The position numbers and the translations under genes were made by a program. Positions 14,001 through 51,189 of a stretch of DNA of 64,000 bases are shown here, one piece after another. The stretch lies in NCBI GenBank assembly GCA_973851085.1, contig OZ316775.1, positions 1,054,001 to 1,118,000 of the forward strand, read 5' to 3'. Numbering within the stretch: the stretch's first letter is position 1; the number at the start of each line of letters is the position of its first letter. This DNA is from Ptychomitrium polyphyllum. Lineage: Eukaryota. A model generated the notes under the pieces. The model was given only the letters and a program-made list of their open reading frames with translations, was not told the origin of the DNA and searched no databases.

Positions 14001-14732
14001 CTTCCACACCAAATTGGGGAATTGAAGGCTCTTAGAAACTTGTATCTAAATGGGTGTTCATCCTTGCAGCAACTTCCACACCAAATTGGAGACCTAAATG
14101 CCCTTAGAAACTTAAATCTAAATGGGTGTTCATCTTTGGTGCAGCTTCCACAATTAATTGGAGAATTGAAGGCCCTTACAAACTTAACACTATTAGGGTG
14201 TTCATCCTTGCAGAAACTTCCACAGCAAATTGGAGAATTGAAGGCCCTTAGAGAATTGAATCTAACAGGATGTTCATCCTTGCAGCAACTTCCACAACAA
14301 ATTGGAGAATTGAAGGCCCTTACAAACTTAACACTATTAGGGTGTTCATCCTTGCAGAAACTTCCACAGCAAATTGGAGAATTGAAGGCCCTTAGAGAAT
14401 TGAATCTAACAGGATGTTCATCCTTGCAGCAACTTCCACAACAAATTGGAGAATTGAAGGCCCTAACAAACTTAACACTATTAGGGTGTTCATCCTTGCA
14501 ACAACTTCCACAACGAATTGGAAAATTGAAGGCCCTTACAGGATTGAATCTATCGAGGTGTTCATCCTTGCAGCAACTTCCACACCAAATTGGAGAATTG
14601 AAGGCCCTTACAAAATTGGATCTATCTGAGTGTTCATCCTTGCAACAACTTCCACAACAAATTAGAGAAATGAAGGCCCTTATAGAATTAAATCTATCAG
14701 GGTATTCATCCTTGGAAAAACTTCCTCAATAA
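11094..14732 (+). CDS. CC-NB-ARC-LRR (NLR) immune receptor, 1212 aa, intronless CDS, about 26 tandem 24-aa LRRs
   Basis: N-terminus MGDPLVAPAVVGAAVS (MAEPL-like), P-loop GRGGAGKT, kinase-2 LVLDDVW, RNBS-B GSVTLITTRN, GLPLAL, RNBS-D CFLYFAAFPED, MHD-equivalent VHD, then [24 protein letters not shown] repeats. A likely 5'UTR splice acceptor TTTGTAG ends at 11087. Confidence 0.95.
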   Translation: MGDPLVAPAVVGAAVSAFFTMVIDAAKCELGHRKKCKLLLESANKLQPHIDAAYQHSPNWEKAQCDALEEIKIIWEKARSFGTKGANESKSEWGKRAMMFWRWGKLPAEHMDIIGRIEEAKNNVLLCAAVQYLKDVNSAKTRTSSGFLGQQIPTEIVGVDIPFNKLKASILESYAKDMASHLGLHGRGGAGKTLLAKMLHNDRDIKERYGVDSIKWITVGLNARVLDLYKTMATFLEDARFEQSYGHRSLEDQRSYLIDAFKEKKVVLVLDDVWQEGGEQNHAIMYWLNIVTAPGSVTLITTRNVAIFSEVYADSEIVLSLSEDDSWELFCSHAFLNSTPPQSIPVELAKEVCQECQGLPLALKVVGSSMKDKVSKEEWDHALNSLKQSKTILGSPIDHELFGRLRWSYDMLQGNVLKTCFLYFAAFPEDYEISVTKLFQMWISEGLVDTEDEAMDYLEVLEKRSLIEWNHSGGHAKVHDILRDLALMIIENAEVGESAYECFFASGKVLKAFPRRKSSQAIKRMSLINNTIYQSINNLQLPHLQVCLLSGLNGSIDQISNIFSNLEKTNLKYLDFSHNQFNFQEMVPCMKLSTYLTHLDLSCGQSLQQLPQQIGELKALINLDLSGCSSLQQLPQQIGQLRALINFRLSRCSSLQQLPQQIGELKALTRLDLSECSSLQQLPHQIGELKALTYLHLSECSSLQQLPQQIGELKALRCLRLLKCSSLQQFPQQIGELKALRFLELSGCSSVQQLPHQIAELEALTCLHLSGNSSLRQLPYQIGELKTVTFLDLSRCSSLQQLPQQIGELKALKYLVLNGCSSLQQLPHQIGELKALTHLDLSKCSSLQQLPHQIGELKALTYLHLSGTSSLQQLPHQIGELKALTHLDLSKCSSLQQLPHQIGELKALTYLHLSGTSSLQQLPHQIGELKALTLLDVSDCSSLLQLPHQIGELKAVTHFHLRRNSSLRQLPHQIGELKALRNLYLNGCSSLQQLPHQIGDLNALRNLNLNGCSSLVQLPQLIGELKALTNLTLLGCSSLQKLPQQIGELKALRELNLTGCSSLQQLPQQIGELKALTNLTLLGCSSLQKLPQQIGELKALRELNLTGCSSLQQLPQQIGELKALTNLTLLGCSSLQQLPQRIGKLKALTGLNLSRCSSLQQLPHQIGELKALTKLDLSECSSLQQLPQQIREMKALIELNLSGYSSLEKLPQ

Positions 14733-17700
14733 ATTGGACAAATGAAGGCCCTTTACGGACTTGGCTCTATTACGGTGTTCATCCTTGCAGCAACTTCCAC
14801 AAGAGATTGGACAATTGAGGGCCCTTATAAACTTCCGACTATCAAGGTGTTCATCCTTGCAGCAACTTCCACAGCAAATTGGAGAATTGAAGGCTCTTTC
14901 GTACTTGGGACTATCAGGGTGTTCATCTTAGCAGCAACTTCCACACCAAATTGGAGAATTGAAGGCCCTTATGCACTTGCATCTTTAAGAGTGTTCATCC
15001 TTGCAGCAACTTCCACACCAAATTGGAGAATTGAAGGCCCTTATAGAATTGGAACTATCAGAGTGTTCATCCTTGCAGCAACTTCCACAACGATTTGGAG
15101 AATTGAAGGTCCTTACAGAATTGGATCTATCAGGGTGTTCATCCTTGCAGTAACTTCCACACCAAATTGGAGAATTGAAGGCTCTTTCGTACTTGGGACT
15201 ATCAGGGTGTTCATTTTAGCAGCAACTACCACACCAAATTGGAGAATTGAAGGCCCTTATGCACTTGCATCTTTAAGAGTGTTCATCCTTGCAGCAACTT
15301 CTACACCAAATTGGAGAATTGAAGGCCCTTATAGAATTGGAACTATCAGAGTGTTCATCCTTGCAGCAACTTCCACAACGATTTGGAGAATTGAAGGTCC
15401 TTACAGAATTGGATCTATCAGGGTGTTCATCCTTGCAGTAACTTCCACACCAAATTGGAGAATTGAAGGCTCTTTCGTACTTGGGACTATCAGGGTGTTC
15501 ATTTTAGCAGCAACTACCACACCAAATTGGAGAATTGAAGGCCCTTACAGAATTGGATCTATCAGGGTTCTCATCCCAACACCAACTTTTGCACCAAATT
15601 GGAGAAATGAAGGGCCTTATGCACTTGCATCTATCAGGGTGTTCATCCTTGCAGCAACTTCCACAACGATTTGGCGAATTGAAGGGCCTTACAGAATTGG
15701 ATCTATCAAGGTGCTCATCCCTGCAGCAACTTCCACACCAAATTGGAGAATTCAAGGCCCTTATGCACTTGCATCTATCACGGTGTTCATCCTTGCAACA
15801 ACTTCCACATCAAAACTGAGAATTGAAGGCCCTTACAGAATTGAATCTATCAGGGTGCTCATCCCTGCAGCAACTTCCACACCAAATTGGAGAATTCAAG
15901 GCCCTTATGCACTTGCATCTATCACGGTGTTCATCCTTGCATCAGCTTCCACATCAAAACTGAGAATTGAAGGCCCTTACAGAATTGAATCTATCGGGGT
16001 GTTCATCATTAGAGCAACTTCTTCATTAAATTAGACAAATGAAGGCCCTTTACGGACTTGGCTCTATTACAGAATTCATCCTTGCAGCAACTTCCACACC
16101 AAATTGGAGAATTGAAGGCCCTTATAGAACTGGAACTATCAGAGTGTTCATCCTTGCAGCAACTTCCACAACGATTTGGCGAAAAAAAGGGCCTTACAGA
16201 ATTGGATCTATCAGGGTGCTCATCCCTGCAGCAACTTCCACACCAAATTGGAGAATTCAAGGGCCTTATGCACTTGCATCTATCAGGGTGTTCATCCTTG
16301 CAGCAACTTCCACATCAAAATTGACAATTGAAGGGCCTTACAGAATTGGATCTATCAGGGAGTTCATCCTTGCAGCAACTTCTACACCAAATTGGAGAAT
16401 TGAAGGCCCTTATAGAACTGGAACTATCAAGGTGTTCATCCTTGCAGCAACTTCCACAACGATTTGGCGAATTGAAGGGCCTTACAGAATTGGATCTATC
16501 AGGGTGCTCATCCCTGCAGCAACTTCCACACCAAATTGGAGAATTCAAGGCCCTTATGCACTTGCATCTATCACGGTGTTCATCCTTGCAACAACTTCCA
16601 CATCAAAATTGACAATTGAAGGGCCTTACAGAATTGGATCTATCAGGGAGTTCATCCTTGCAGCAACTTCCACACCAAATTGAAGAATTGAAGGCCCTTA
16701 TAGAACTGGACCTATCAGGGTATTCATCCTTGCAGCAACTTCCACAACGATTTGGCGAATTGAAGGGCCTTACAGAATTGGATCTATCAAGGTGCTCATC
16801 CCTGCAGCAACTTCCACACCAAATTGGAGAATTCAAGGCCCTTATGCACTTGCATCTATCACGGTGTTCATCCTTGCAACAACTTCCACATCAAAACTGA
16901 GAATTGAAGGCCCTTACAGAATTGAATCTATCGGGGTGTTCATCATTAGAGCAACTTCCTCATTAAATTGGACAAATGAAGGCCCTTTACGGACTAGGCT
17001 CTATTACAGTGTTCATCCTTGCAACAACTTCCACACCAAATTAAAGAGTTGAAGGGCCTTACATACTTGCATTAATCAGGGTGATCATCCTTGCAGCAAC
17101 TTCCACATCAAATTGGAGAATTCAAGGGCCTTATGCACTTGCATCTATCACGGTGTTCATCCTTGCAACAACTTCCTCATCAAAACAAAGAATTGAAGGC
17201 CCTTTTAGAATTGAATCTATCGGGGTGTTTTTCATTAGAGCAACTTCCTCATTAAATTGGACAAATGAAGGCCCTTTACGGACTAGGCTCTATTACAGTG
17301 TTTATCCTTGCAGCAACATCTACACCACATTAAAGAGTTGAAGGGCCTTACATACTTGCATCAATCAGGGTATTCAACCTTGCAGCAACTTCCACATCAA
17401 AATTGACAATTGAAGGGCCTTACAGAATTGGATCTATCAGGGAGTTCATCCTTGCAGCAACTTCTACACCAAATTGGAGAATTGAAGGCCCTTATAGAAC
17501 TGGAACTATCAAGGTGTTCATCCTTGCAGCAACTTCCACAACGATTTGGCGAATTGAAGGGCCTTACAGAATTGGATCTATCAGGGTGCTCATCCCTACA
17601 GCAACTTCCACACCAAATTGGAGAATTCAAGGCCCTTATGCACTTGCATCTATCACGGTGTTCATCCTTGCAACAACTTCCACATCAAAATTGACAATTG

Positions 17701-20700
17701 AAGGGCCTTCTAGAATTGGATCTATCGGGGTGATCATCCTTGCAGCAACTTCTACATCAAATTGGAGAATTGAAGGCCCTTACAGAATTGGAATTATCAG
17801 GGTGTTCATCCCTCCAGCAACTTCCACACCAAATTGGAAATTTGAAGGGCCTTATGGACTTGCATCTATTAGGGTGTTCATCCTTGCAGCAACTTCCACA
17901 TCAAATTAACAATTGAAGGGCCTTACAGAATTGGATCTATCAGGGAGTTCATCCTTGCAGCAACTTCTACACCAAATTGGAAATTTGAAGGGCCTTATGG
18001 ACTTGCATCTATTAGGGTGTTCATCCTTGCAGCAACTTCCACATCAAATTAACAATTGAAGGGCCTTACAGAATTGGATCTATCAGGGAGTTCATCCTTG
18101 CAGCAACTTCTACACCAAATTGGAGAATTGAAGGGCCTTCCAGAATTGGATCTATCGATGTGATCATCCTTGCAGCAACTTCTACATCAAATTGGAGAAT
18201 TGAAGGCCCTTACAGAATTGGATTTATCAGGGTGCTCATCCCTGCAGCAACTTCCACACCAAATTGGAGAATTGAAGGGCCTTATGCACTTGCATCTATC
18301 AGGGTGTTCATCCTTCCAGCAACATCTATACCAAACAGGAGAATTGAAGGGCCTTATGACTTGCATCTATTAGGGTGTTTATCCTTGCAGCAACTTCCAC
18401 ATCAAAATTGACAATTGAAGGGCCTTCCAGAATTGGACTTATCAGGGTGATCATCCTTGCAGCAACTTCTACACCAAATTGGAGAATTGAAGGGCCTTAT
18501 GCACTTGCATCTATTAGGGTGTTTATCCTTGCAGCAACTTCCACATTAAAATTGACAATTGAAGGGCCTTCCAGAATTGGATCTATCGGGGTGATCATCC
18601 TTGCAGCAACTTCTACATCTATTAGGGTGTTTATCCTTGCAGCATCTTCCACATCAAAATTGACAATTGAAGGGCCTTCCAGAATTGGATCTATCGGGGT
18701 GATCATCCTTGCAGCAACTTCTACATCAAATTGAAGAATTGAAGGCCCTTACAGAATTGGATTTATCAGGGTGCTCATCCCTACAGCAACATCCACACCA
18801 AATTGGAGAATTGAAGGGCCTTATGCACTTGCATCTATCAGGGTGTTCATCCTTGCAGCAACTTCCACATCAAAATTGACAATTGAAGGGCCTTACAGAA
18901 TTGGATCTATCAGGGTGCTCATCCCTACAGCAACTTCCACACCAAATTGGAGAATTGAAGGGCCTTATGCACTTGCATCTATCAGGGTGTTCATCCTTGC
19001 AGCAACTTCCACATCAAAATTGACAATTGAAGGGCCTTACAGAATTGGATCTATCAGGGTGCTCATCCCTACAGCAACTTCCACACCAAATTGGAGAATT
19101 GAAGGGCCTTATGCACTTGCATCAATTACGGTAATCATCCCTGTAGCAACATCCACACCAAATTGGAGAATTGAAGGGCCTTATGCACTTGCATCTATCA
19201 GGGTGTTCATCCTTGCAGCAACTTCCACATCAAAACTGACAATTGAAGGGCCTTACACAATTGGATCTATCAGGGTGCTCATCCCTGCACCAACTTCCAC
19301 ACCAAAATGGAGAATTGAAGGGCCTTATGCACTTGCATCTATGAGGGTGTTCATCCTGCAGCAACTTCCACATCAAATTGGAGAATTGAAGGGCCTTACA
19401 GAATTGCATCTATCAGGGTGTTCATCCTTGCAGCAACTTCCACATCAAAACTGACAATTGAAGGGCCTTACACAATTGGATCTATCAGGGTGCTCATCCC
19501 TGCACCAACTTCCACACCAAAATGGAGAATTGAAGGGCCTTATGCACTTGCATCTCTCAAGGTGTTCATCCTTGCAACAACTTCCACATCAAAACTGAGA
19601 ATTGAAGGCCCTTACAGAATTGAATCTATCGGGGTGTTCATCATTAGTGCAACTTCCTCATTAAATTGGACAAATGAAGGCCCTTTACGGACTTGGCTCT
19701 ATTACAGTGTTCATCCTTGCAGCAACATCCACACCAAATTAAAGAGTTGAAGGGCCTTACATACTTGAATCAAATAGGGTATTCATCATTGCAGCAACTT
19801 CCACAACGATTTGGCGAACTGAAGGGCCTTATAGAATTGGATCTATCAGGGTGTTCATCCTTGCAGCAACTTCCACACCAAATTGGAGAATTGAAGGCCC
19901 TTACAAAATTGCATCTATCAGGGTGCTCATCCCTGCAGCAACTTCCACACCAAATTGGAGAATTCAAGGCCCTTATGCACTTGCATCTATCAGGGTGTTC
20001 ATCCTTGCAGAAACTTCCACATCAAAATTGACAATTGAAGGGCCTTACAGAATTGGATCTATCAGGTTGCTCATCCCCACAGCAAGTTCCACACCAAATT
20101 GGAGAATTGAAGGGCCTTATGCACTTGCATCTATCAGGGTGTTCATCCTTCCAGCAACATCCATACCAAATTGGAGAATTGAAGGGCCTTACAGAATTGG
20201 ATCTATCAGGGTGATCATCCTTGCAGCAACTTCCACATCAAATTGGAGAAGTGAAGGCCCTTACAGAATTGGATCTATCAGGGTGCGCATCCCAACAGCA
20301 ACTTCCGCACCAAATTGGAGAATTGAAGGGCCTTATGCACTTGCATCTATCAGGGTGTTCATCCTTGCAGCAACTTCCACATCAAAACTGACAATTGAAG
20401 GGCCTTACAGAATTGGATCTATCAGGGTGCTCATCCCTACAGCAACTTCCACACCAAATTGGAGAATTGAAGGGCCTTATGCACTTGCATCTATCAGGGT
20501 GTTCATCCTTGCAGCAACTTCCACATCAAAATTGACAATTGAAGGGCCTTACAGAATTGGATCTATCAGGGTGCTCATCCCTACAGCAACTTCCACACCA
20601 AATTGGAGAATTGAAGGGCCTTATGCACTTGCATCAATTACGGTAATCATCCCTGTAGCAACTTCCGCACCAAATTGGAGAATTGAAGGGCCTTATGCAC

Positions 20701-22080
20701 TTGCATCTATCAGGGTGTTCATCCTTGCAGCAACTTCCACATCAAAATTGACAATTGAAGGGCCTTACAGAATTGGATCTATCAGGGTGCTCATCCCCAC
20801 AGCAACTTCCACACCAAATTGGAGAATTGAAGGGCCTTATGCACTTGCATCTATCAGGGTGTTCATCCTTGCAGCAACTTCCACATCAAAATTGACAATT
20901 GAAGGGCCTTACAGAATTGGATCTATCAGGGTGCTCATCCCTACAGCAACTTCCACACCAAATTGGAGAATTGAAGGGCCTTATGCACTTGCATCAATTA
21001 CGGTAATCATCCCTGTAGCAACTTCCGCACCAAATTGGAGAATTGAAGGGCCTTATGCACTTGCATCTATCAGGGTGTTCATCCTTGCAGCAACTTCCAC
21101 ATCAAAATTGACAATTGAAGGGCCTTACAGAATTGGATCTATCAGGGTGCTCATCCCTACAGCAACTTCCACACCAAATTGGAGAATTGAAGGGCCTTAT
21201 GCACTTGCATCAATTACGGTAATCATCCCTGTAGCAACAATCACACCAAATTGGAGAATTGAAGGGCCTTATGCACTTGCATCAATCAGGGTGTTCATCC
21301 TTGCAGCAACTTCCACATCAAAATTGACAATTGAAGGGCCTTACAGAGTTTAATCTATCAGACTGATCATCCTTGCAGCAACTTCCACATGAAATTGGAG
21401 AATTGAAGGCCCTTACAGAATTGGATTAAAATGGGTGTTCATCCTTGCAAAACTTCCACACCAAATTGGAGAATTGAAGGGCCTTATGCACTTGCATCTA
21501 TCAGGGTGCTCATCCCTGGAGCAACATCCACACTAAATTGGAGAATTGAAGGGCCTTATGCACTTGCATCTATCAGGGTGTTCATCCTTGCAGCAACTTC
21601 CACATCAAAATTGACATTTGAAGGGCCTTACAGAATTGGATCAATCAGGGTGCTCATCCCCGCAGCAACTTCCACACCAAATTGGAGAATTGAAGGCCCT
21701 TATGCACTTGCATCTATCAGGGTGTTCATCCTTGCAGCAACTTCCACATCAAAATTGACATTTGAAGGGCCTTACAGAATTGGATCTATCAGGGTGCTCA
21801 TCCCCACAGCAACTTCCACACCAAATTGGAGAATTGAAGGGCCTTATGCACTTGCATCTATCAGGGTGTTCATCCTTGCAGCAACTTCCACATCAAAATT
21901 GACAATTGAAGGGCCTTACAGAATTGGATCTATCAGACTGATCATCCTTGCAGCAACTTCCACATGAAATTGGAGAATTGAAGGCCCTTACAGAATTGGA
22001 TTAAAATGGGTGTTCATCCTTGCAATACTTCCACACCAAATTGGAGAATTGAAGGGCCTTATGCACTTGCATCTATCAGG

Positions 22081-25000
22081 GTGTTCATGCTTCTAGCAAC
22101 TTCCACATCAAAATTGACAATTGAAGGGCCTTACAGAATTGGATCTATCAGACTGATCATCCTTGCAGCAACTTCCACATGAAATTGGAGAATTGAAGGC
22201 CCTTACAGAATTGGATTTAAATGGGTGTTCATCCTTGCAGCAACTTCCACACCAAATTGAAGAATTGAAGGGCCTTATGCACTTGCATCTATCAGGGTGT
22301 TCATCCTTGCAACAACTTCCACATCAAAACTGAGAATTGAAGGCCCTTACAGAATTGGATCTATCAGGGTGCTCATCCCTGCAGCAACTTCCACACCAAA
22401 TTGGAGAATTCAAGGCCCTTATGCACTTGCATCTATCAGGGTGTTCATCCTTGCAGCAACTTCCACATCAAAATTGACACTTGAAGGGCCTTACAGAATT
22501 GGATCTATCAGGGTGCTCATCCCTACAGCAACTTCCACACCAAATTGGAGAATTGAAGGGCCTTATGCACTTGCATCAATTACGGTAATCATCCTTGTAG
22601 CAACATCCACACCAAATTGGAGAATTGAAGGGCCTTATGCACTTGCATCTATCAGGGTGTTCATCCTTGCAGCAACTTCCACATCAAAATTGACAATTGA
22701 AGGGCCTTACAGAATTGGATCTATCAGGGTGCTCATCCCTACAGCAACTTCCACACCAAATTGGAGAATTGAAGGGCCTTATGCACTTGCATCTATCAGG
22801 GTGTTCATCCTTCCAGCAACATCCACACCAAATTGGAGAATTGAAGGGCCTTATGCACTTGCATCTATCAGGGTGTTCATCCTTGCAGCAACTTCCACAT
22901 CAAAATTGACAATTGAAGGGCCTTACAGAATTGGATCTATCAGGGTGATCATCCTTGCAGCAACTTCCACACCAAATTGGAGAATTCAAGGCCCTTATGC
23001 ACTTGCATCTATGAGGGTGTTCATCCTTGCAGCAACTTCCACATCAAAACTGACAATTGAAGGGCCTTACAGAATTGGATCTATCAGGGTGCTCATCCCT
23101 ACAGCAACTTCCACACCAAATTGGAGAACTAAAGGGCCTTATGCACTTGCATCAATTACGGTAATCATCACTGTAGCAACATCCACACCAAATTGGAGAA
23201 TTGAAGGGCCTTATGCACTTGCATCTATCAGGGTGTTCATCCTTGCAACAACTTCCACATCAGAACTGAGAATTGAAGGCCCTTACAGAATTGAATCTAT
23301 CAGGGTGCTCATCTCTGCAGCAACTTCCACACCAAATTGGAGAATTCAAGGCCCTTATGCACTTGCATCTATCAGGGTGTTCATCTTTGCGACAAAATCC
23401 ACACCAAATTGGAGAACTGAAGAGCCTTATGCACTTGCATCTATCAGGGTGTTCATGCTTCTAGCAACTTCCACATCAAAATTGACAATTGAAGGGCCTT
23501 ACAGAATTGGATCTATCAGACTGATCATCCTTGCAGCAACTTCCACATGAAATTGGAGAATTGAAGGCCCTTACAGAATTGGATTTAAATGGGTGTTCAT
23601 CCTTGCAGCAACTTCCACACCAAATTGAAGAATTGAAGGGCCTTATGCACTTGCATCTATCAGGGTGTTCATCCTTGCAACAACTTCCACATCAAAACTG
23701 AGAATTGAAGGCCCTTACAGAATTGGATCTATCAGGGTGCTCATCCCTGCAGCAACTTCCACAGCAAATTGGAGAACTGAAGGGCCTTATGCACTTGCAT
23801 CTATCAGGGTGTTCATCTTTGCGACAAAATCCACACCAAATTGGAGAACTGTAGAGCCTTATGCACTTGCATCTATCAGGGTGTTCATGCTTCTAGCAAC
23901 TTCCACATCAAAATTGACAATTGAAGGGCCTTACAGAATTGGATCTATCAGACTGATCATCCTTGCAGCAACTTCCACATGAAATTGGAGAATTGAAGGC
24001 CCTTACAGAATTGGATTTAAATGGGTGTTCATCCTTGCAGCAACTTCCACACCAAATTGAAGAATTGAAGGGCCTTATGCACTTGCATCTATCAGGGTGT
24101 TCATCCTTGCAACAACTTCCACATCAAAACTGAGAATTGAAGGCCCTTACAGAATTGGATCTATCAGGGTGCTCATCCCTGCAGCAACTTCCACACCAAA
24201 TTGGAGAATTCAAGGCCCTTATGCACTTGCATCTATCAGGGTGTTCATCCTTGCAGCAACTTCCACATCAAAATTGACACTTGAAGGGCCTTACAGAATT
24301 GGATCTATCAGGGTGCTCATCCCTACAGCAACTTCCACACCAAATTGGAGAATTGAAGGGCCTTATGCACTTGCATCAATTACGGTAATCATCCTTGTAG
24401 CAACATCCACACCAAATTGGAGAATTGAAGGGCCTTATGCACTTGCATCTATCAGGGTGTTCATCCTTGCAGCAACTTCCACATCAAAATTGACAATTGA
24501 AGGGCCTTACAGAATTGGATCTATCAGGGTGCTCATCCCTACAGCAACTTCCACACCAAATTGGAGAATTGAAGGGCCTTATGCACTTGCATCTATCAGG
24601 GTGTTCATCCTTCCAGCAACATCCACACCAAATTGGAGAATTGAAGGGCCTTATGCACTTGCATCTATCAGGGTGTTCATCCTTGCAGCAACTTCCACAT
24701 CAAAATTGACAATTGAAGGGCCTTACAGAATTGGATCTATCAGGGTGATCATCCTTGCAGCAACTTCCACACCAAATTGGAGAATTCAAGGCCCTTATGC
24801 ACTTGCATCTATGAGGGTGTTCATCCTTGCAGCAACTTCCACATCAAAACTGACAATTGAAGGGCCTTACAGAATTGGATCTATCAGGGTGCTCATCCCT
24901 ACAGCAACTTCCACACCAAATTGGAGAACTAAAGGGCCTTATGCACTTGCATCAATTACGGTAATCATCACTGTAGCAACATCCACACCAAATTGGAGAA

Positions 25001-25185
25001 TTGAAGGGCCTTATGCACTTGCATCTATCAGGGTGTTCATCCTTGCAACAACTTCCACATCAGAACTGAGAATTGAAGGCCCTTACAGAATTGAATCTAT
25101 CAGGGTGCTCATCTCTGCAGCAACTTCCACACCAAATTGGAGAATTCAAGGCCCTTATGCACTTGCATCTATCAGGGTGTTCATC
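22081..25185 (+). repeat. Higher-order duplication: about 1.3 kb block repeated at 1800-bp offset (25 units)
   Basis: Lines 22081-23385 read the same as 23881-25185. ORF pairs 22297/24097 and 22697/24497 match. Confidence 0.85.
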
Positions 25186-28100
25186 CTTGCAACAACTTCC
25201 ACATCAAAACTGAGATTTGAAGGCCCTTACAGAATTGAGTCTATCAGGGTGCTCATCCCTGCAGCAACTTCCACACCAAATTGGAGAATTGAAGGCCCTT
25301 ATGCACTTGTATCTATCAGGGTGTTCATCCTTGCAGCAACTTCCACATCAAAATTGACAATTGAAGGGCCTTACAGAATTGGAACTATCAGGGTGCTCAT
25401 CCCTCCAGCAACTTCCACACCAAATTGGAGAATTGAAGGGCCTTATGCACTTGCATCTATCAGGGTGTTCATCCTTCCAGCAACATCCACACCAAATTTG
25501 AGAATTGAAGGGCCTTACAGAATTGGATCTATCAGGGTGATCATCCTTGCAGCAACTTCCACACCAAATTGAAGAATTGAAGGCCCTTATGCACTTGCAT
25601 CTATCAGGGTGTTCATCCTTGCAGCAACTTCCACATCAAAATTGACAATTGAAGGGCCTTACAGAATTGGATCTATCAGGGTGCTCATCCCTCCAGCAAC
25701 TTCCACACCAAATTGGAGAATTGAAGGGCCTTATGCACTTGCATCTATCAGGGTGTTCATCCTTCCAGCAACATCGACACCAAATTTGAGAATTGAAGGG
25801 CCTTACAGAATTGGATCTATCAGGGTGATCATCCTTGCAGCAACTTCCACACCAAATTGAAGAACTGTAGAGCCTTATGCACTTGCATCTATCAGGGTGT
25901 TCATGCTTCTAGCAACTTCCACATCAAAATTGACAATTGAAGGGCCTTACAGATTTGGATCTATCAGACTGATCATCCTTGCAGCAACTTCCACATGAAA
26001 TTGGAGAATTGAAGGCCCTTACAGAATTGGATTTAAATGGAAGTTCATCCTTGCAGCAACTTCCACACCAAATTGAAGAATTGAAGGGCCTTATGCACTT
26101 GCATCTATCAGGGTGTTCATCCTTGCAACAACTTCCACATCAAAACTGAGAATTGAAGGCCCTTACAGAATTGGATCTATCAGGGTGCTCATCCCTGCAG
26201 CAACTTCCACACCAAATTGGAAAATTCAAGGCCCTTATGCACTTGCATCTATCAGGGTGTTCATCCTTGCAGCAACTTCCACATCAAAATTGACAATTGA
26301 AGGGCCTTACAGAATTGGATCTATCAGGGTGCTCATCCCTCCAGCAACTTCCACACCAAATTGGAGAATTGAAGGGCCTTATGCACTTGCATCTATCAGG
26401 GTGTTCATCCTTGCAGCAACTTCCACATCAAAATTGACAATTGAAGGCCCTTACAGAATTGGATCTATCAGGGTGCTCATCCCTCCAGCAACTTCCACAG
26501 CAAATTGGAGAACTGAAGGGCCTTATGCACTTGCATCTATCAGGGTGTTCATCTTTGCGACGAAATCCACACCAAATTGGAGAACTGTAGAGCCTTATGC
26601 ACTTGTTTCTATCAGGGTGTTCATGCTTGTAGCAACTTCCACATCAAAATTGACAATTGAAGGGCCTTACAGAATTGGATCTATCAGACTGATCATCCTT
26701 GCAGCAACTTCCACATGAAATTGGAGAATTGAAGGCCCTTACAGAATTGGATTTAAATGGGTGTTCATCCTTGCAGCAACTTCCACATCAAAATTGACAC
26801 TTGAAGGGCCTTACAGAATTGGATCTATCAGGGTGCTCATCCCTACAGCAACTTCCACACCAAATTGGAGAATTGAAGGGCCTTATGCACTTGCATCTAT
26901 CAGGGTGTTCATCCTTGCAGCAACTTCCACATCAAAACTGACAATTGAAGGGCCTTACAGAATTGGATCTATCAGGGTGCTCATCCCCACAGCAACTTCC
27001 ACACCAAATTGGAGAATTGAAGGGCCTTATGCACTTGCATCTATCAGGGTGTTCATCCTTGCAGCAACTTCCACATCAAAATTGACAATTGAAGGGCCTT
27101 ACAGAATTGGATCTATCAGGGTGCTCATCCCCACAGCAACTTCCACACCAAATTGGAGAATTGAAGGGCCTTATGCACTTGCATCTATCAGGGTGTTCAT
27201 CCTTGCAGCAACTTCCACATCAAAATTGACACTTGAAGGGCCTTACAGAATTGGATCTATCAGGGTGCTCATCCCTACAGCAACTTCCACACCAAATTGG
27301 AGAATTGAAGGGCCTTATGCACTTGCATCAATTACGGTAATCATCCCTGTAGCAACATCCACACCAAATTGGAGAATTGAAGGGCCTTATGCATTTGCAT
27401 CTATCAGGGTGTTCATCCTTGCAGCAACTTCCACATCAAAATTGACAATTGAAGGGCCTTACAGAATTGGATCTATCAGGGTGTTCATCCTTGCAGCAAC
27501 TTCCACATCAAAATTGACAATTGAAGATCCTTACAGAATTGGATCTATCAGGGTGCTCATCCCTACAGCAACTTCCACACCAAATTGGAGAATTGAAGGG
27601 CCTTATGCACTTGCATCTATCAGGGTGTTCATCCTTCCAGCAACATCCACACCAAATTGGAGAATTGAAGGCCCTTACAGAATTGGATCTATCAGGGTGC
27701 TCATCCCTCCAGCAACTTCCACACCAAATTGGAGAATTCAAGGCCCTTATGCACTTGCATCTATGAGGGTGTTCATCCTTGCAGCAACTTCCACATCAAA
27801 ACTGACAATTGAAGGGCCTTACAGAATTGGATCTATCAGGGTGCTCATCCCCACAGCAACTTCCACACCAAATTGGAGAATTGAAGGGCCTTATGCACTT
27901 GCATCTATCATGGTGTTCATCCTTGCAGCAACTTCCACATCAAAATTGACAACTGAAGGGCCTTACAAAATTGGATCTATCAGGGTGCTCATCCCTGCAG
28001 CAACATCTACACCAAATTAAAGAAATGAAGGGCCTTATGCACTTGCATCTATCAGGGTGTTCATCCTTGTAGCAACTTCCACATCAAATTGCAGAATTGA

Positions 28101-30184
28101 AGGCCCTTACAGAATTGGATCTATCAGGGTGCTCATCCCTCCAGCAACTTCCACAGCAAATTGGAGAATTGAAGGGCCTTATGTACTTGCATCTATTAGG
28201 GTGTTCATCCTTGCAGCAACTTCCACATCAGAATTGACAATTGAAGGGCCTTACAGAATTGGATCTATCAGGGTGCTCATCCCTACAGCAACTTCCACAC
28301 CAAATTGGAGAATTGAAGGGCCTTATGCACTTGCATCTATCAGGGTGTTCATCCTTCCAGCAACATCCACACCAAATTGGAGAATTGAAGGCCCTTACAG
28401 AATTGGATCTATCAGGGTGCTCATCCCTCCAGCAACTTCCACACCAAATTGGAGAATTCAAGGCCCTTATGCACTTGCATCTATGAGGGTGTTCATCCTT
28501 GCAGCAACTTCCACATCAAAACTGACAATTGAAGGGCCTTACAGAATTGGATCTATCAGGGTGCTCATCCCCACAGCAACTTCCACACCAAATTGGAGAA
28601 TTAAAGGGCCTTATGCACTTGCATCTATCAGGGTGTTCATCCTTGCAGCAACTTCCACATCAAAATTGACAATTGAAGGGCCTTACAGAATTGGATCTAT
28701 CAGGGTGCTCATCCCTACAGCAACTTCCACACCAAATTGGAGAATTGAAGGGCCTTATGCACTTGCATCTATCATGGTGTTCATCCTTGCAGCAACTTCC
28801 ACATCAAAATTGACAACTGAAAGGCCTTACAGAATTGGATCTATCAGGGTGCTCATCCCTGCAGCAACATCTACACCAAATTAAAGAAATGAAGGGCCTT
28901 ATGCACTTGCATCTATCAGGGTGTTCATCCTTGCAGCAACTTCCACATCAAAACTGACAATTGAAGGGCCTTACAGAATTGGATCTATCAGGGTGCTCAT
29001 CCCCACAGCAACTTCCACACCAAATTGGAGAATTGAAGGGCCTTATGCACTTGCATCTATCATGGTGTTCATCCTTGCAGCAACTTCCACATCAAATTGC
29101 AGAATTGAAGGCCCTTACAGAATTGGATCTATCAGGGTGCTCATCCCTCCAGCAACTTCCACAGCAAATTGGAGAATTGAAGGGCCTTATGTACTTGCAT
29201 CTATTAGGGTGTTCATCCTTGCAGCAACTTCCACATCAGAATTGACAATTGAAGGGCCTTACAGAATTGGATCTATCAGGGTGCTCATCCCTACAGCAAC
29301 TTCCACACCAAATTGGAGAATTGAAGGGCCTTATGCACTTGCATCTATCAGGGTGTTCATCCTTCCAGCAACATCCACACCAAATTGGAGAATTGAAGGC
29401 CCTTACAGAATTGGATCTATCAGGGTGATCATCCTTGCAGCAACTTCCACACCAAATTGGAGAATTGAAGGGCCTTATGCACTTGCATCTATCATGGTGT
29501 TCATCCTTGCAGCAACTTCCACATCAAAATTGACAACTGAAAGGCCTTACAGAATTGGATCTATCAGGGTGCTCATCCCTGCAGCAACTTCCACATCAAA
29601 ACTGACAATTGAAGGGCCTTACAGAATTGGATCTATCAGGGTGCTCATCCCTACAGCAACTTCCACACCAAATTGGAGAATTGAAGGGCCTTATGCACTT
29701 GCATCTATCAGGGTGTTCATCCTTGCAGCAACTTCCACATCAAAACTGACAATTGAAGGGCCTTACAGAATTGGATCTATCAGGGTGCTCATCCCTACAG
29801 CAACTTCCACACCAAATTGGAGAATTGAAGGGCCTTATGCACTTGCATCTATCAGGGTGTTCATCCTTGCAGCAACTTCCACATCAAAATTGACAATTGA
29901 AGGGCCTTACAGAATTGGATCTATCAGGGTGCTCATCCCTACAGCAACTTCCACACCAAATTGGAGAATTGAAGGGCCTTATGCACTTGCATCTATCATG
30001 GTGTTCATCCTTGCAGCAACTTCCACATCAAAATTGACAACTGAAAGGCCTTACAGAATTGGATCTATCAGGGTGCTCATCCCTGCAGCAACATCTACAC
30101 CAAATTAAAGAAATGAAGGGCCTTATGCACTTGCATCTATCAGGGTGTTCATCCTTGCAGCAACTTCCACATCAAAACTGACAT

Positions 30185-33100
30185 TTGAAGGGCCTTACAG
30201 AATTGGATCTATCAGGGTGCTCATCCCTACAGCAACTTCCACACCAAATTGGAGAATTGAAGGGCCTTATGCACTTGCATCTATCATGGTGTTCATCCTT
30301 GCAGCAACTTCCACATCAAATTGCAGAATTGAAGGCCCTTACAGAATTGGATCTATCAGGGTGCTCATCCCTCCAGCAACTTCCACAGCAAATTGGAGAA
30401 TTGAAGGGCCTTATGTACTTGCATCTATTAGGGTGTTCATCCTTGCAGCAACTTCCACATCAGAATTGACAATTGAAGGGCCTTACAGAATTGGATCTAT
30501 CAGGGTGCTCATCCCTACAGCAACTTCCACACCAAATTGGAGAATTGAAGGGCCTTATGCACTTGCATCTATCAGGGTGTTCATCCTTCCAGCAACATCC
30601 ACACCAAATTGGAGAATTGAAGGCCCTTACAGAATTGGATCTATCAGGGTGATCATCCTTGCAGCAACTTCGACACCAAATTGGAGAATTGAAGGGCCTT
30701 ATGCACTTGCATCTATCATGGTGTTCATCCTTGCAGCAACTTCCACATCAAAATTGACAACTGAAAGGCCTTACAGAATTGGATCTATCAGGGTGCTCAT
30801 CCCTGCAGCAACATCTACACCAAATTAAAGAAATGAAGGGCCTTACAGAATTGGATCTATCAGGGTGTTCATCCTTGCAGCAACTTCCACATCAAAACTG
30901 ACAATTGAAGGGCCTTACAGAATTGGATCTATCAGGGTGATCATATTTGCAGCAACTTCCACACCAAATTGGAGAATTCAAGGCCCTTATGCACTTGCAT
31001 CTATGAGGGTGTTCATCCTTGCAGCAACTTCCACATCAAAACTGACAATTGAAGGGCCTTACAGAATTGGATCTATCAGGGTGCTCATCCCTACAGCAAC
31101 TTCCACACCAAATTGGAGAATTCAAGGCCCTTATGCACTTGCATCTATCAGGGTGTTCATCCTTGCAACAACTTCCACATCAAAACTGAGAATTGAAGGC
31201 CCTTACAGAATTGAATCTATCAGGGTGCTCATCTCTGCAGCAACTTCCACACCAAATTGGAGAATTCAAGGCCCTTATGCACTTGCATCTATCAGGGTGT
31301 TCATCCTTGCAACAACTTCCACATCAAAACTGAGATTTGAAGGCCCTTACAGAATTGAGTCTATCAGGGTGCTCATCCCTGCAGCAACTTCCACACCAAA
31401 TTGGAGAATTGAAGGCCCTTATGCACTTGCATCTATCAGGGTGTTCATCCTTGCAGCAACTTCCACATCAAAATTGACAATTGAAGGGCCTTACAGAATT
31501 GGATCTATCAGGGTGCTCATCCCTCCAGCAACTTCCACACCAAATTGGAGAATTGAAGGGCCTTATGCACTTGCATCTATCAGGGTGTTCATCCTTGCAG
31601 CAACTTCCACATCAAAATTGACAATTGAAGGCCCTTACAGAATTGGATCTATCAGGGTGCTCATCCCTCCAGCAACTTCCACAGCAAATTGGAGAACTGA
31701 AGGGCCTTATGCACTTGCATCTATCAGGGTGTTCATCCTTGCGACAAAATCCACACCAAATTGGAGAACTGTAGAGCCTTATGCACTTGCATCTATCAGG
31801 GTGTTCTTCCTTGCAGCAACTTCCACATCAAAATTGACACTTGAAGGGCCTTACAGAATTGGATCTATCAGGGTGCTCATCCCTACAGCAACTTCCACAC
31901 CAAATTGGAGAATTGAAGGGCCTTATGCACTTGCATCAATTACGGTAATCATCCCTGTAGCAACATCCACACCAAATTGGAGAATTGAAGGGCCTTATGC
32001 ACTTGCATCTATCAGGGTGTTCATCCTTGCAGCAACTTCCACATCAAAACTGACAATTGAAGGGCCTTACACAATTGGATCTATCAGGGTGCTCATCCCT
32101 GCACCAACTTCCACACCAAAATGGAGAATTGAAGGGCCTTATGCACTTGCATCTATCATGGTGTTCATCCTTGCAGCAACTTCCACACCAAATTGGAGAA
32201 TTGAAGGGCCTTATGCACTTGCATCTATCAGGGTGTTCATCCTTCCAGCAACATCCACACCAAATTGGAGAATTGAAGGCCCTTACAGAATTGGATCTAT
32301 CAGGGTGCTCATCCCTCCAGCAACTTCCACACCAAATTGGAGAATTCAAGGCCCTTATGCACTTGCATCTATGAGGGTGTTCATCCTTGCAGCAACTTCC
32401 ACATCAAAACTGACAATTGAAGGGCCTTACAGAATTGGATCTATCAGGGTGCTCATCCCCACAGCAACTTCCACACCAAATTGGAGAATTGAAGGGCCTT
32501 ATGCACTTGCATCTATCATGGTGTTCATCCTTGCAGCAACTTCCACATCAAAACTGACAATTGAAGGGCCTTACAGAATTGGATCTATCAGGGTGCTCAT
32601 CCCCACAGCAACTTCCACACCAAATTGGAGAATTGAAGGGCCTTATGCACTTGCATCTATCAGGGTGTTCTTCCTTGCAGCAACTTCCACATCAAAATTG
32701 ACACTTGAAGGGCCTTACAGAATTGGATCTATCAGGGTGCTCATCCCTACAGCAACTTCCACACCAAATTGGAGAATTGAAGGGCCTTATGCACTTGCAT
32801 CAATTACGGTAATCATCCCTGTAGCAACATCCACACCAAATTGGAGAATTGAAGGGCCTTATGCACTTGCATCTATCAGGGTGTTCATCCTTGCAGCAAC
32901 TTCCACATCAAAATTGACAATTGAAGGGCCTTACAGAACTGGATCTATCAGGGTGTTCATCCTTGCAGCAACTTCCACATCAAAATTGACAATTGAAGGG
33001 CCTTACAGAATTGGATCTATCAGGGTGCTCATCCCTACAGCAACTTCCACACCAAATTGGAGAATTGAAGGGCCTTATGCACTTGCATCTATCATGGTGT

Positions 33101-35800
33101 TCATCCTTGCAGCAACTTCCACATCAAATTGCAGAATTGAAGGCCCTTACAGAATTGGATCTATCAGGGTGCTCATCCCTCCAGCAACTTCCACACCAAA
33201 TTGGAGAATTCAAGGCCCTTATGTACTTGCATCTATTAGGGTGTTCATCCTTGCAGCAACTTCCACATCAGAATTGACAATTGAAGGGCCTTACAGAATT
33301 GGATCTATCAGGGTGCTCATCCCTACAGCAACTTCCACACCAAATTGGAGAATTGAAGGGCCTTATGCACTTGCATCTATCAGGGTGTTCATCCTTCCAG
33401 CAACATCCACACCAAATTGGAGAATTGAAGGCCCTTACAGAATTGGATCTATCAGGGTGATCATCCTTGCAGCAACTTCGACACCAAATTGGAGAATTGA
33501 AGGGCCTTATGCACTTGCATCTATCATGGTGTTCATCCTTGCAGCAACTTCCACATCAAAATTGACAACTGAAAGGCCTTACAGAATTGGATCTATCAGG
33601 GTGCTCATCCCTGCAGCAACATCTACACCAAATTAAAGAAATGAAGGGCCTTACAGAATTGGATCTATCAGGGTGTTCATCCTTGCAGCAACTTCCACAT
33701 CAAAACTGACAATTGAAGGGCCTTACAGAATTGGATCTATCAGGGTGATCATATTTGCAGCAACTTCCACACCAAATTGGAGAATTCAAGGCCCTTATGC
33801 ACTTGCATCTATGAGGGTGTTCATCCTTGCAGCAACTTCCACATCAAAACTGACAATTGAAGGGCCTTACAGAATTGGATCTATCAGGGTGCTCATCCCT
33901 ACAGCAACTTCCACACCAAATTGGAGAATTCAAGGCCCTTATGCACTTGCATCTATCAGGGTGTTCATCCTTGCAACAACTTCCACATCAAAACTGAGAA
34001 TTGAAGGCCCTTACAGAATTGAATCTATCAGGGTGCTCATCTCTGCAGCAACTTCCACACCAAATTGGAGAATTCAAGGCCCTTATGCACTTGCATCTAT
34101 CAGGGTGTTCATCCTTGCAACAACTTCCACATCAAAACTGAGATTTGAAGGCCCTTACAGAATTGAGTCTATCAGGGTGCTCATCCCTGCAGCAACTTCC
34201 ACACCAAATTGGAGAATTGAAGGCCCTTATGCACTTGCATCTATCAGGGTGTTCATCCTTGCAGCAACTTCCACATCAAAATTGACAATTGAAGGGCCTT
34301 ACAGAATTGGATCTATCAGGGTGCTCATCCCTCCAGCAACTTCCACACCAAATTGGAGAATTGAAGGGCCTTATGCACTTGCATCTATCAGGGTGTTCAT
34401 CCTTGCAGCAACTTCCACATCAAAATTGACAATTGAAGGCCCTTACAGAATTGGATCTATCAGGGTGCTCATCCCTCCAGCAACTTCCACAGCAAATTGG
34501 AGAACTGAAGGGCCTTATGCACTTGCATCTATCAGGGTGTTCATCCTTGCGACAAAATCCACACCAAATTGGAGAACTGTAGAGCCTTATGCACTTGCAT
34601 CTATCAGGGTGTTCTTCCTTGCAGCAACTTCCACATCAAAATTGACACTTGAAGGGCCTTACAGAATTGGATCTATCAGGGTGCTCATCCCTACAGCAAC
34701 TTCCACACCAAATTGGAGAATTGAAGGGCCTTATGCACTTGCATCAATTACGGTAATCATCCCTGTAGCAACATCCACACCAAATTGGAGAATTGAAGGG
34801 CCTTATGCACTTGCATCTATCAGGGTGTTCATCCTTGCAGCAACTTCCACATCAAAACTGACAATTGAAGGGCCTTACAGAATTGGATCTATCAGGGTGC
34901 TCATCCCTGCAGCAACTTCCACACCAAATTGGAGAATTCAAGGCCCTTATGCTCTTGCATCTATCAGGGTGCTCATCCCTGCAGCAACTTCCACACCAAA
35001 TTGAAGAATTGAAGGGCCTTATGCACTTGCATCTATCAGGGTGTTCATCCTTCCAGCAACATCCACACCAAATTGGAGAATTGAAGGCCCTTACAGAATT
35101 GGATCTATCAGGGTGCTCATCCCTCCAGCAACTTCCACACCAAATTGGAGAATTCAAGGCCCTTATGCACTTGCATCTATGAGGGTGTTCATCCTTGCAG
35201 CAACTTCCACATCAAAACTGACAATTGAAGGGCCTTACAGAATTGGATCTATCAGGGTGCTCATCCCCACAGCAACTTCCACACCAAATTGGAGAATTGA
35301 AGGGCCTTATGCACTTGCATCTATCATGGTGTTCATCCTTGCAGCAACTTCCACATCAAAACTGACAATTGAAGGGCCTTACAGAATTGGATCTATCAGG
35401 GTGCTCATCCCCACAGCAACTTCCACACCAAATTGGAGAATTGAAGGGCCTTATGCACTTGCATCTATCAGGGTGTTCTTCCTTGCAGCAACTTCCACAT
35501 CAAAATTGACACTTGAAGGGCCTTACAGAATTGGATCTATCAGGGTGCTCATCCCTACAGCAACTTCCACACCAAATTGGAGAATTGAAGGGCCTTATGC
35601 ACTTGCATCAATTACGGTAATCATCCCTGTAGCAACATCCACACCAAATTGGAGAATTGAAGGGCCTTATGCACTTGCATCTATCAGGGTGTTCATCCTT
35701 GCAGCAACTTCCACATCAAAATTGACAATTGAAGGGCCTTACAGAACTGGATCTATCAGGGTGTTCATCCTTGCAGCAACTTCCACATCAAAATTGACAA
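30185..35800 (+). repeat. Higher-order tandem duplication of 2808 bp (39 units) in the array core
   Basis: Near-identical ORF pairs offset by exactly 2808: 30185/32993, 30865/33673, 32044/34852. Confidence 0.85.
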
Positions 35801-36939
35801 TTGAAGGGCCTTACAGAATTGGATCTATCAGGGTGCTCATCCCTACAGCAACTTCCACACCAAATTGGAGAATTGAAGGGCCTTATGCACTTGCATCTAT
35901 CAGGGTGTTCATCCTTCCAGCAACATCCACACCAAATTGGAGAATTGAAGGCCCTTACAGAATTGGATCTATCAGGGTGCTCATCCCTCCAGCAACTTCC
36001 ACACCAAATTGGAGAATTCAAGGCCCTTATGCACTTGCATCTATGAGGGTGTTCATCCTTGCAGCAACTTCCACATCAAAACTGACAATTGAAGGGCCTT
36101 ACAGAATTGGATCTATCAGGGTGCTCATCCCCACAGCAACTTCCACACCAAATTGGAGAATTGAAGGGCCTTATGCACTTGCATCTATCATGGTGTTCAT
36201 CCTTGCAGCAACTTCCACATCAAAATTGACAACTGAAGGGCCTTACAGAATTGGATCTATCAGGGTGCTCATCCCTGCAGCAACATCTACACCAAATTAA
36301 AGAAATGAAGGGCCTTATGCACTTGCATCTATCAGGGTGTTCATCCTTGTAGCAACTCCGACATCAAATTGGAGAATTGAAGGCCCTTACAGAATTGAAT
36401 CTAAATGGGTGTTCATCCTTGCAGCAACATCCACACCAAATTGGAGAATTGAAGGGCCTTATGCACTTGCATCTATCATGGTGTTCATCCTTGTAGCAAC
36501 TTCCACATCAAATTGGAGAATTAAAGGCCCTTACAGAATTGAATCTAAATGGATGTTCATCCTTGCAGCAACATCCACACCAAATTGGAGAATTGAAGGG
36601 CCTTATGCACTTGCATCTATGAGGGTGTTCATCCTTGCAGCAACTTCCACACCAAATTGGAGAATTGAAGGGCCTTTTGCACTTGCAGCTATCAGGGTGT
36701 TCATGCTTGGAGCAACATCCACACCAAATTGGAGAACTGAAGGGCTTTATCAAGTGCATCTATCAGGGTGTTCATCCTTGCAGCAACTTCCACATCAAAT
36801 TGGAGAATTCAAGGGCCTTACAGAATTGGATCTATCAGGGTGCTCATCCCTGCAGCAACTTCCACACCAAATTGGAGAATTGAAGGACCTTATGCACTTG
36901 CATCTATCAGGGTGATCATCCTTGGAGCAACATCCACAC

Positions 36940-50900: not shown

Positions 50901-51189
50901 AAAAGCTTTTATGCACTTGGATCTATCAAAGTGTTCATCCTTGCAATAGCTTCCATAACAAATTGGAGAATCAAAGGCCTTTATGCATTTTGACCTATCA
51001 GGGTGCTTATCTTTACAACAACTTCCATACCAAATTGAAGAGCTGAAGGCTCTTATAAACTTGGATCTGTTGAGGGTGTTCATCTTTGTAGCAACCTCTA
51101 CAACAAATTGGGGAGTTGAAGACTTTCACGCACTTGAATGTAAATGAATTTGTATACTTGCAGCACCTTCTATAGGAGATTAAGATTAC

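Follow-up and report, generated by a model that had tools for sequence, protein, structure and literature searches.

The 64-kb window, i.e. the whole stretch of DNA that was analysed, contains a moss-type CC-NB-LRR gene whose LRR units continue in tandem for 36 kb past its stop codon. Our preferred explanation, to which we assign a probability of roughly two in three, is that the LRR tail behind the stop has grown by unequal crossing-over into a half-broken satellite, and that the units carrying a stop-plus-insertion signature are passengers of this growth. What we see here appears to be a satellite emerging from a protein repeat at its original site, next to a parent gene that is still open and shares its register, and coding and non-coding copies of one unit can be compared at a single locus.

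The receptor gene and its coding LRR units

The ORF of the gene contains the motifs P-loop, kinase-2, RNBS-B, GLPL, RNBS-D and VHD (Table 1), the last of which is also found in all four nearest relatives. By its NB-ARC motifs (MHD-type included) and the modelled C-terminal LRR solenoid the predicted product is a plant NLR. The MGDPL start is common to the relatives, several of which have a precomputed PF05659 match. In the gene itself this match stays below the cut-off, and it is not assigned to the RPW8-type NLRs (RNL).

The coding LRR shows a mean best internal identity of 0.90, calculated from those 17 units that the pattern caught, which exceeds the 85% threshold for fungal HiC repeats. 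Two pairs of units are identical (9/11 and 18/20), and recent in-frame block duplications were detected in units 9-12 and 17-21. In the predicted structure the last 12 coding units stack into a solenoid that stays regular up to its end, with a mean pLDDT of 89.

Table 1. Features of the receptor gene and the array (window coordinates).
Feature	Position	Strand	Evidence or remark
Uninterrupted CC-NB-LRR ORF, 1212 aa	11094..14732	+	ORF list, domain matches
Coiled-coil/RPW8-like N-terminal domain, start MGDPL	11094..11540	+	PF05659 E=0.012, 15.7 bits, cut-off 30.4
NB-ARC and winged-helix	11619..12551	+	PF00931 E=4e-38, PF23559 E=2e-10
25 coding 72-bp LRR units, stop-free and indel-free	12930..14729	+	20 distinct exposed-residue signatures
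Last coding unit	14658..14729	+	three alleles absent from other coding units, found in 9-12 post-stop units
AATAAA hexamer overlapping stop	14728..14733	+	sole one between 12953 and 51605
LRR-derived tandem array past stop	14730..51175	+	505 units and one decayed end unit
Terminal stop unit, signature copy 1	14730..14802	+	TAA for CAA and 1-nt insertion
430-aa ORF, alternative frame opened by insertion	14742..16034	+	
Edge unit differing from coding unit 1 by 2 nt	14803..14874	+	70-nt exact match
Internal signature copy 2	16027..16099	+	
Internal signature copy 3	16964..17036	+	
Internal signature copy 4	17253..17325	+	run X2 contig matches
Internal signature copy 5	19662..19734	+	
Distal edge	49664..51175	+	20 mostly unique decayed units and end unit
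Three distal edge units 1-3 nt from coding units	49736, 49809, 50384	+	

Extent and make-up of the array

Repeat detection in the 64-kb window delimited a 38-kb array of the 72-bp LRR unit, placed at 12908-51121 and running out at about 51,170 with 530.6 copies, of which 25 clean coding units precede and 505 units follow the stop. The latter comprise 260 distinct sequences in two alternating monomer types, and 336 of them have an identical twin. Block duplications in this part reach 27 units; the copies of a 27-unit block differ at 7 nt, those of a 22-unit block at 8 nt and those of a 17-unit block not at all. The longest exact repeat, 1663 bp, recurs at an offset of 2808 bp, and another one of 1330 bp at 1800 bp. 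The share of near-identical unit pairs falls slowly from about 5% at lags 2-3 to 1.4% beyond 200 units, indicating that homogenisation also acts beyond close neighbours. Units of the distal edge mostly occur once and are divergent, with nearest-neighbour distances of 5.5-9.4 nt (0.1-0.6 nt in mid-array), and the distal end fades as a degenerate LRR unit. The original prediction was confined to 14700..19720 and thereby missed the scale of the array. Housekeeping genes, TIP41-like and eIF2-alpha, are situated to either side of the locus.

A stop or indel disrupts 251 of the 505 post-stop units compared to none of the 25 coding units. Stops are present in 225 post-stop units, and the longest undisrupted run comprises 10 units. 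Five stop alleles were amplified (121, 44, 40, 20 and 15 copies), the most frequent being a TGA allele that is spread from 15811 to 49089. Indels were inherited and are not scattered read errors, since the same unit types carry them repeatedly (one deletion type in 12 units). Furthermore, only two exposed-residue signatures cover 243 of the 505 post-stop units, as against 20 signatures in the 25 units of the coding part.

It seems highly improbable that the array length was inflated by assembly error. The two long exact repeats (1663 and 1330 bp) are segments of the kind that assemblers can duplicate, but the 260 distinct units, the nested blocks with 0-10 differences, the recurring indel types and a sequence devoid of N speak against such an artefact, as do array-type unit junctions occurring in public contigs.

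Constraint before and after the stop

Stop-creating changes are absent from the coding units (0 of 101; P=0.002 at the neutral share, which is partly true by ORF definition) and account for 44 of 481 changes behind the stop, 1.55 times the neutral share. It had been predicted that truncation came first and that the proximal array then expanded free of coding constraint. The expansion without coding constraint is supported, and for the whole 36 kb rather than just the proximal part; this stop may, but need not, have been the first one. The crude framework omega amounts to 0.49 and 0.59 for the first two thirds of the array behind the stop versus 0.51 in the coding units, and the replacement excess at exposed sites persists behind the stop (1.5-2.6). 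In the coding units we counted 36 nonsynonymous and 5 synonymous changes at exposed sites versus 33 and 27 in the framework (Fisher p=5e-4), and the same skew was found post-stop. Because the post-stop values match the coding ones, spanning-tree omega cannot alone split constraint from inherited differences; only the stop counts do so.

The stop-plus-insertion signature

The ORF ends with CCT CAA TAA, and the TAA at 14730 opens an LRR unit, in whose first codon the coding consensus has CAA. An extra T in the run 14752-14754 extends this unit to 73 nt. Both the nonsense change and the 1-nt insertion had been predicted, as had the recurrence of the signature at five sites: exact matches of the 32-nt signature were detected at 14730, 16027, 16964, 17253 and 19662 only, and allowing up to 4 substitutions gave no further site. 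The signature marks 5 of the 505 post-stop units. Stop and insertion always occur together, no unit of the signature lineage having either alone. All five copies have in common a rare derived T in column 69 of the preceding unit (4 others among 530) and a rare derived A in unit column 13 (12 others), and they are therefore copies by descent, which bears out the view that the junction itself was duplicated. The terminal copy stands apart: it shows 17-21 differences in 144 positions to the four internal ones, as against 4-14 between any two of these, and its split therefore predates the recent block duplications. The AATAAA hexamer is absent from the internal copies. The signature units are likely ordinary inherited passengers of the expansion, useful only as a clock.

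A 220-nt contig of run X2 spans the junction with 22 differing letters and no indel, the same number of differences as for the 17253 copy, and agrees with this copy at three positions private to it. This argues against an assembly slip in the 17253 copy, the sample being possibly the window's own source and hence not independent. The small shares from runs X3 and X4 were left out of the comparison, and summed contig depth was not read as copy number. Bases private to the terminal copy (14714-14729) were not among the contigs aligned there, and several window bases of the unique region were not seen in contigs of sample S1; such contigs attest presence only, as the filter drops records.

In a tree of the units, as suggested in the original prediction, the labels are clustered, needing 25 changes where shuffled labels need 49.6 on average, and edge units intermix with coding units, but 72-bp recombining units yield no reliable order of events.

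Relatives and their C-termini

The nearest relatives are NLRs of the moss Ceratodon with 55-58% identity over residues 1-600. They belong to chromosome 6 of Ceratodon purpureus (M758_6G046000, M758_6G067500, KC19_6G049300, M758_6G046200 and KC19_6G049200), and the cluster is the sister group in the NB-ARC tree (SH-aLRT 91). All eight chromosome-scale Ceratodon models of the query's clade, which are predicted gene models with ends unchecked against DNA or RNA, have unrelated C-termini 4-33 aa past the last matched LRR unit. The LRR count among relatives ranges from 7 to 23, and one Ceratodon model ends in the same register as the query. In the sister clade, a C-terminal motif is common to 8 of 10 proteins. 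The assumption that the stop had removed a native C-terminal cap is not supported: the Ceratodon models end equally abruptly, and no cap remnant was found at the distal array end.

Paralogues with 85-95% identity, frameshifts and deletions among them, were detected in sample S1. A first metagenome scan gave no relative. In a second one 78 loci with 31-40% identity were found, of which only L003 and L021 have at least 4 LRR-profile units, both ending at the contig edge. The search for longer homologues returned three matches, all from angiosperms, and no giant moss LRR protein, which is weak evidence. Shorter matches to the LRR part alone were not informative.

Origin of the array

In the preferred scenario the gene would belong to a clade with open-ended LRRs, in which the end of the protein falls at the first stop and a short decaying tail remains. 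Near-identical units could mispair and give rise to block duplications, selection holding the 25 in-frame units before the stop and none behind it. Within the tail, a central two-monomer set containing stops may recently have run away, displacing the old tail end 36 kb downstream. The stop unit would have entered the proximal tail by a single copying event, followed by three further duplications within blocks of 3-4 units, and occasional short exchanges would connect coding units with both edges of the array.

Alternatively it might be that the stop inactivated the gene and that the satellite grew at a locus no longer mattering. A 36-kb repeat array directly behind an ORF could attract silencing, frameshifted and deleted paralogues exist in sample S1, and the last coding unit shows five framework departures, including a conserved Cys changed to Tyr. 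Nevertheless we regard a young pseudogene or dying paralogue as unlikely, because the 3.6-kb ORF is intact with all NB-ARC motifs kept, the 25 clean coding units stand against a half-broken tail, and block duplications within the coding part were recent and in frame. Moreover, the relatives end likewise, and the truncated end is still modelled as a complete solenoid.

Silent cassettes act as donors in other immune or antigenic-variation systems, and post-stop units might in the same way pass on patches or entire units to the coding LRR through gene conversion or crossover, with a movable stop tuning receptor length. Judging from the unit sequences, the boundary between coding part and array is apparently not sealed and some exchange happens: 4 of 30 edge units lie within 3 nt of a coding unit versus 0 of 474 middle units, with exact matches of 70, 80 and 66 nt to coding units 1, 3 and 9/11. 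Together with the tail alleles in the last coding unit and the varying LRR number of the relatives, this would fit a donor library and makes it plausible that recombination moves the stop, as had been predicted. The gain in receptor length would be small, however, since random entry into the array would add on average only 1.0 readable LRR. The dominant array alleles, three of which occur in 326, 205 and 194 post-stop units, are found in none of the 25 coding units. This speaks against a donor library, as does the bulk array being half broken and less diverse than the coding part. Copying from coding part to tail explains the edge exchanges equally well. Donors in silent-cassette systems (VLR-like) are diverse and mostly usable; here, in contrast, the 251 disrupted units and the two prevailing signatures point to the opposite, and signs of exchange are confined to the last coding unit and to four units at the edges. 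We therefore consider the donor library rather improbable.

A further reading would be that a moss NLR clade has given up a fixed C-terminus for an open-ended LRR tape, in which a single C-to-T change at the boundary of a unit creates both the stop and the overlapping AATAAA, thereby resetting receptor length and mRNA end, and in which the tail would be an edge-exchanging cassette store that can run away into a satellite. This reading appears improbable to us.

Likeness to known systems

Satellite DNA formed by unequal crossing-over consists of head-to-tail monomers over tens of kb, with two-monomer alternation, block duplications and divergent edges. The array has in common with it the long non-coding head-to-tail run, the block duplications and the divergent edges. 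It differs from ordinary satellite DNA in having a protein-coding unit as its monomer, in running on without a break and in register from a gene that is still open, and in its position among housekeeping genes.

The Ceratodon chromosome-6 NLRs, compared as proteins only, also have 24-aa LRR units, a best internal identity of 0.79-0.93 and abrupt, unrelated C-termini, but another unit consensus. Highly self-similar LRRs without a shared C-terminus may represent a trait of this moss NLR clade. For fungal HiC NLRs such as het-e and het-d of Podospora, excerpts of two publications describe near-identical sensor repeats, for which concerted evolution through unequal crossing-over is proposed, together with variation at exposed sites, changes in length and occasional stop-bearing repeats (PMC12222747, PMC4986451). 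Near-identical repeats are shared by the moss-type gene, in which replacement changes are skewed to exposed sites both before and behind the stop. The fungal proteins, according to the same excerpts, have WD40, ANK or TPR repeats, about 10-12 of them conserved, and need cryptic C-terminal blades to fold; a large non-coding continuation is not mentioned in these excerpts (PMC12222747, PMC4986451). By its repeats the moss-type gene would work like a HiC-repeat NLR without being a member of this group, having LRR instead of WD/ANK/TPR in a fungus. CC(MAEPL)-NLRs, presented in an excerpt of PMC11218826 as NLRs of non-flowering plants, resemble the gene in their MGDPL/MADPL start and hydrophobic residues, a likeness by resemblance only. 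In a non-flowering plant, LRR number and stop position can thereby be tested as causes of receptor variation.

Splicing, readthrough and the alternative frame

Most GT sites of the last three coding units are weak ones that recur in the majority of units. On paper, in-register splice joins over 25-35 kb would lengthen the protein by no more than 106 or 237 codons, and readthrough of the stop would reach the shifted frame after seven codons. No match to Rfam was found. A selected protein from the alternative frame was considered and rejected, because the stop alleles are as mutation predicts and no Pfam match reached the cut-off. Distinct stop alleles number 10 in the alternative frame and 15 in the LRR frame, which is approximately the ratio expected from mutational accessibility (0.035/0.059). 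The consensus unit already has this frame open, and the 430-aa ORF is a by-product of that.

The array behind the NLR stop

The features of note at this locus are a satellite of 36 kb built from LRR units and the apparently open-ended character of the NLR's clade, not the stop-plus-insertion signature. Tandem Repeats Finder detected a single array with a period of 72 and 530.6 copies (12908-51121). Cut into units, it consists of 25 coding units without stop or indel followed by 505 post-stop units; a stop is present in 225 of these, an indel in 40, and one or the other in 251. The 505 post-stop units comprise 260 distinct sequences, and the longest run of clean units among them is 10. The commonest stop allele, TGA at codon 3, is present in 121 units scattered between 15811 and 49089; the next four alleles number 44, 40, 20 and 15 copies. 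In the titles and abstracts consulted, mainly of openly accessible papers, no array of LRR units of such size behind an NLR stop is described.

An identical twin is present for 336 of the 505 post-stop units, duplicated blocks of 27, 22, 17 and 16 units differ by 7, 8, 0 and 10, respectively, and exact repeats reach 1663 bp. Two monomer classes alternate in 352 of 504 steps. Units in the middle of the array are young, with nearest-neighbour distances of 0.1-0.6 nt; the 20 at the distal edge, all unique, have decayed (5.5-9.4 nt). A degenerate LRR, identical to the consensus at 49 of 72 positions, closes the array, with AT-rich DNA after it; neither contains a cap-like remnant. Twins, blocks and decayed distal units fit an old decaying tail whose middle probably expanded by unequal exchange. 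A 108-nt unit (18547-18654), one and a half monomers long and the sole large register break in the array, results from out-of-register exchange. Loose ends in the public sequencing run X3, compared with window 14640-14830, correspond to unit types that characterise the distal half of the array, although this run covers the unique gene region only sparsely; the repeat may also occur under another organism label.

Exchange and constraint

Three alleles, carried by 326, 205 and 194 post-stop units respectively, are found in 0/25 coding units, which argues that the array bulk does not feed the gene. At the array ends, 4/30 edge units lie at most 3 nt from a coding unit versus 0/474 middle units, and the last coding unit carries three alleles found elsewhere only post-stop; the boundary between gene and tail has thus leaked or shifted. 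By calculation, a crossover landing on a post-stop unit chosen at random would yield 1.0 readable LRR on average, and at least 3 in 12% of cases. The tail has the structural features of satellite DNA; it lacks the diversity and usability of donor-cassette systems.

According to the original prediction, at least the proximal array grew free of coding constraint. This is borne out by a spanning tree over non-redundant units without gaps (23 coding, 233 post-stop; indel units excluded), in which 44/481 post-stop changes create stops, 1.55 times the neutral share. The corresponding value for coding units, 0/101, is partly definitional; the contrast of 25 clean coding units with a longest post-stop run of 10 is not. 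Coding units and the first two-thirds of the tail alike have a framework omega near 0.5, at exposed sites omega is above 1 in each, and this similarity counts against a clean constraint reading. Because they are alike in coding units and tail, the ratios carry inherited differences and do not speak for ongoing selection. The insertion opens a frame of 430 aa, starting with the ATG at 14742, that the consensus unit also leaves open. It shows 10 stop alleles versus 15 in the LRR frame, at an accessibility of 0.035 versus 0.059, and thus gains stop alleles as expected.

History of the stop-plus-insertion signature

The NLR ORF terminates at a TAA that stands as the first codon of an LRR unit with a 72-bp period, and one extra T brings this terminal stop unit to 73 nt. 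The predicted recurrence of stop plus insertion is real: the exact 32-nt signature is found at 14730, 16027, 16964, 17253 and 19662, and the same search tolerating up to 4 substitutions added no site. It marks 1% of post-stop units. The codon-1 TAA arises easily, since it recurs without the insertion in four unrelated units.

Over 144 columns (preceding unit plus stop unit), the terminal copy differs from the four internal ones by 17-21 positions, and these differ from each other by 4-14. The terminal-versus-internal gap lies mostly within the preceding unit, with a clear common tract beginning at about its last 15 nt. Derived bases are common to the four internal copies, and others are private to the terminal copy, a split pointing to one early duplication and then three local re-duplications within small blocks. 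The signature itself is likely just an ordinary passenger. A contig from public run X2 corresponds to the copy at 17253, with 22 differences both expected and observed; the sample is possibly the window's own source.

The NLR and its C-terminal end

The 1212-aa protein encoded by ORF 11094-14732 has NB-ARC, winged-helix and LRR matches; an RPW8 match at its N-terminus is weak. Closest are Ceratodon purpureus NLRs (55-58% identity), followed by other moss proteins. In the NB-ARC tree (28 rows) it adjoins the Ceratodon chromosome-6 cluster (SH-aLRT 91) inside a 12-row clade (82), whose sister is a 10-row clade (99). The N-terminal MGDPL resembles the start of the MAEPL-type CC domains of PMC11218826. 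In how it works, the protein is comparable to the highly internally conserved NLRs of fungi (PMC12222747, PMC4986451), but as a moss LRR protein it is no member of that group.

The original prediction is supported in part: the signature copies were duplicated, but the loss of a native cap through the stop is not supported, a fixed end being likewise missing in 8/8 chromosome-scale Ceratodon models of the same clade. These end 4-33 residues beyond the last matched LRR unit and have 7-23 units and unrelated last residues; the end of one falls in the register seen in the NLR studied here. Three more clade members, which come from short metagenome contigs and may be cut, were left out of this comparison. 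Because all eight end so abruptly, the missing fixed end would be a clade trait rather than a product of the stop, as far as the Ceratodon gene models are reliable. A short C-terminal motif is common to 8/10 sister-clade proteins. Structure prediction from a single sequence gave a solenoid that stays regular throughout the final 12 coding units (pLDDT 89; 68 in the last block).

The terminal stop is contained in an AATAAA, the sole one from 12953 to 51605, which the internal signature copies have lost; 6/24 coding unit boundaries are one C-to-T change short of the same stop-plus-hexamer. Among near-upstream elements of Physcomitrella, AAUAAA ranks first in frequency, yet occurs in only 7.25% of transcripts (PMC6413133), and in plants this element lies 13-30 bases ahead of cleavage (PMC10800305). 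Given this share and spacing, and two other AATAAA inside the ORF, the hexamer is a weak candidate for a transcript end.

An acceptor-like, pyrimidine-rich AG lies 6 nt upstream of the NLR ATG (11075-11096), suggesting a putative 5' UTR intron. Contigs of public runs X1 and X2, compared with window 10400-12930, contain several paralogues of 85-95% identity, some frameshifted or internally deleted, consistent with a birth-and-death NLR family in that sample.

Genomic neighbourhood

Features neighbouring or overlapping the NLR and its array
Feature	Window position	Strand	Domain evidence
TIP41-like gene, multi-exon	8335-9345	minus	PF04176, E=3e-8 for one exon
606-aa antisense ORF over coding LRR	12905-14725	minus	
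eIF2-alpha gene	56815-59325	plus	S1 domain and PF07541
Gene containing coding repeats of 63 bp (62376-62561, 62886-63026)	61879-63700	minus	No Pfam match

The locus is flanked by the TIP41-like gene and the eIF2-alpha gene, the position of the latter placing the array amid housekeeping genes. The TIP41-like gene is transcribed away from the NLR, with a short common upstream interval of less than 2 kb. The antisense ORF is probably a by-product, since the consensus unit has one antisense frame open. The gene with 63-bp repeats may resemble a low-temperature or desiccation-induced repeat protein.
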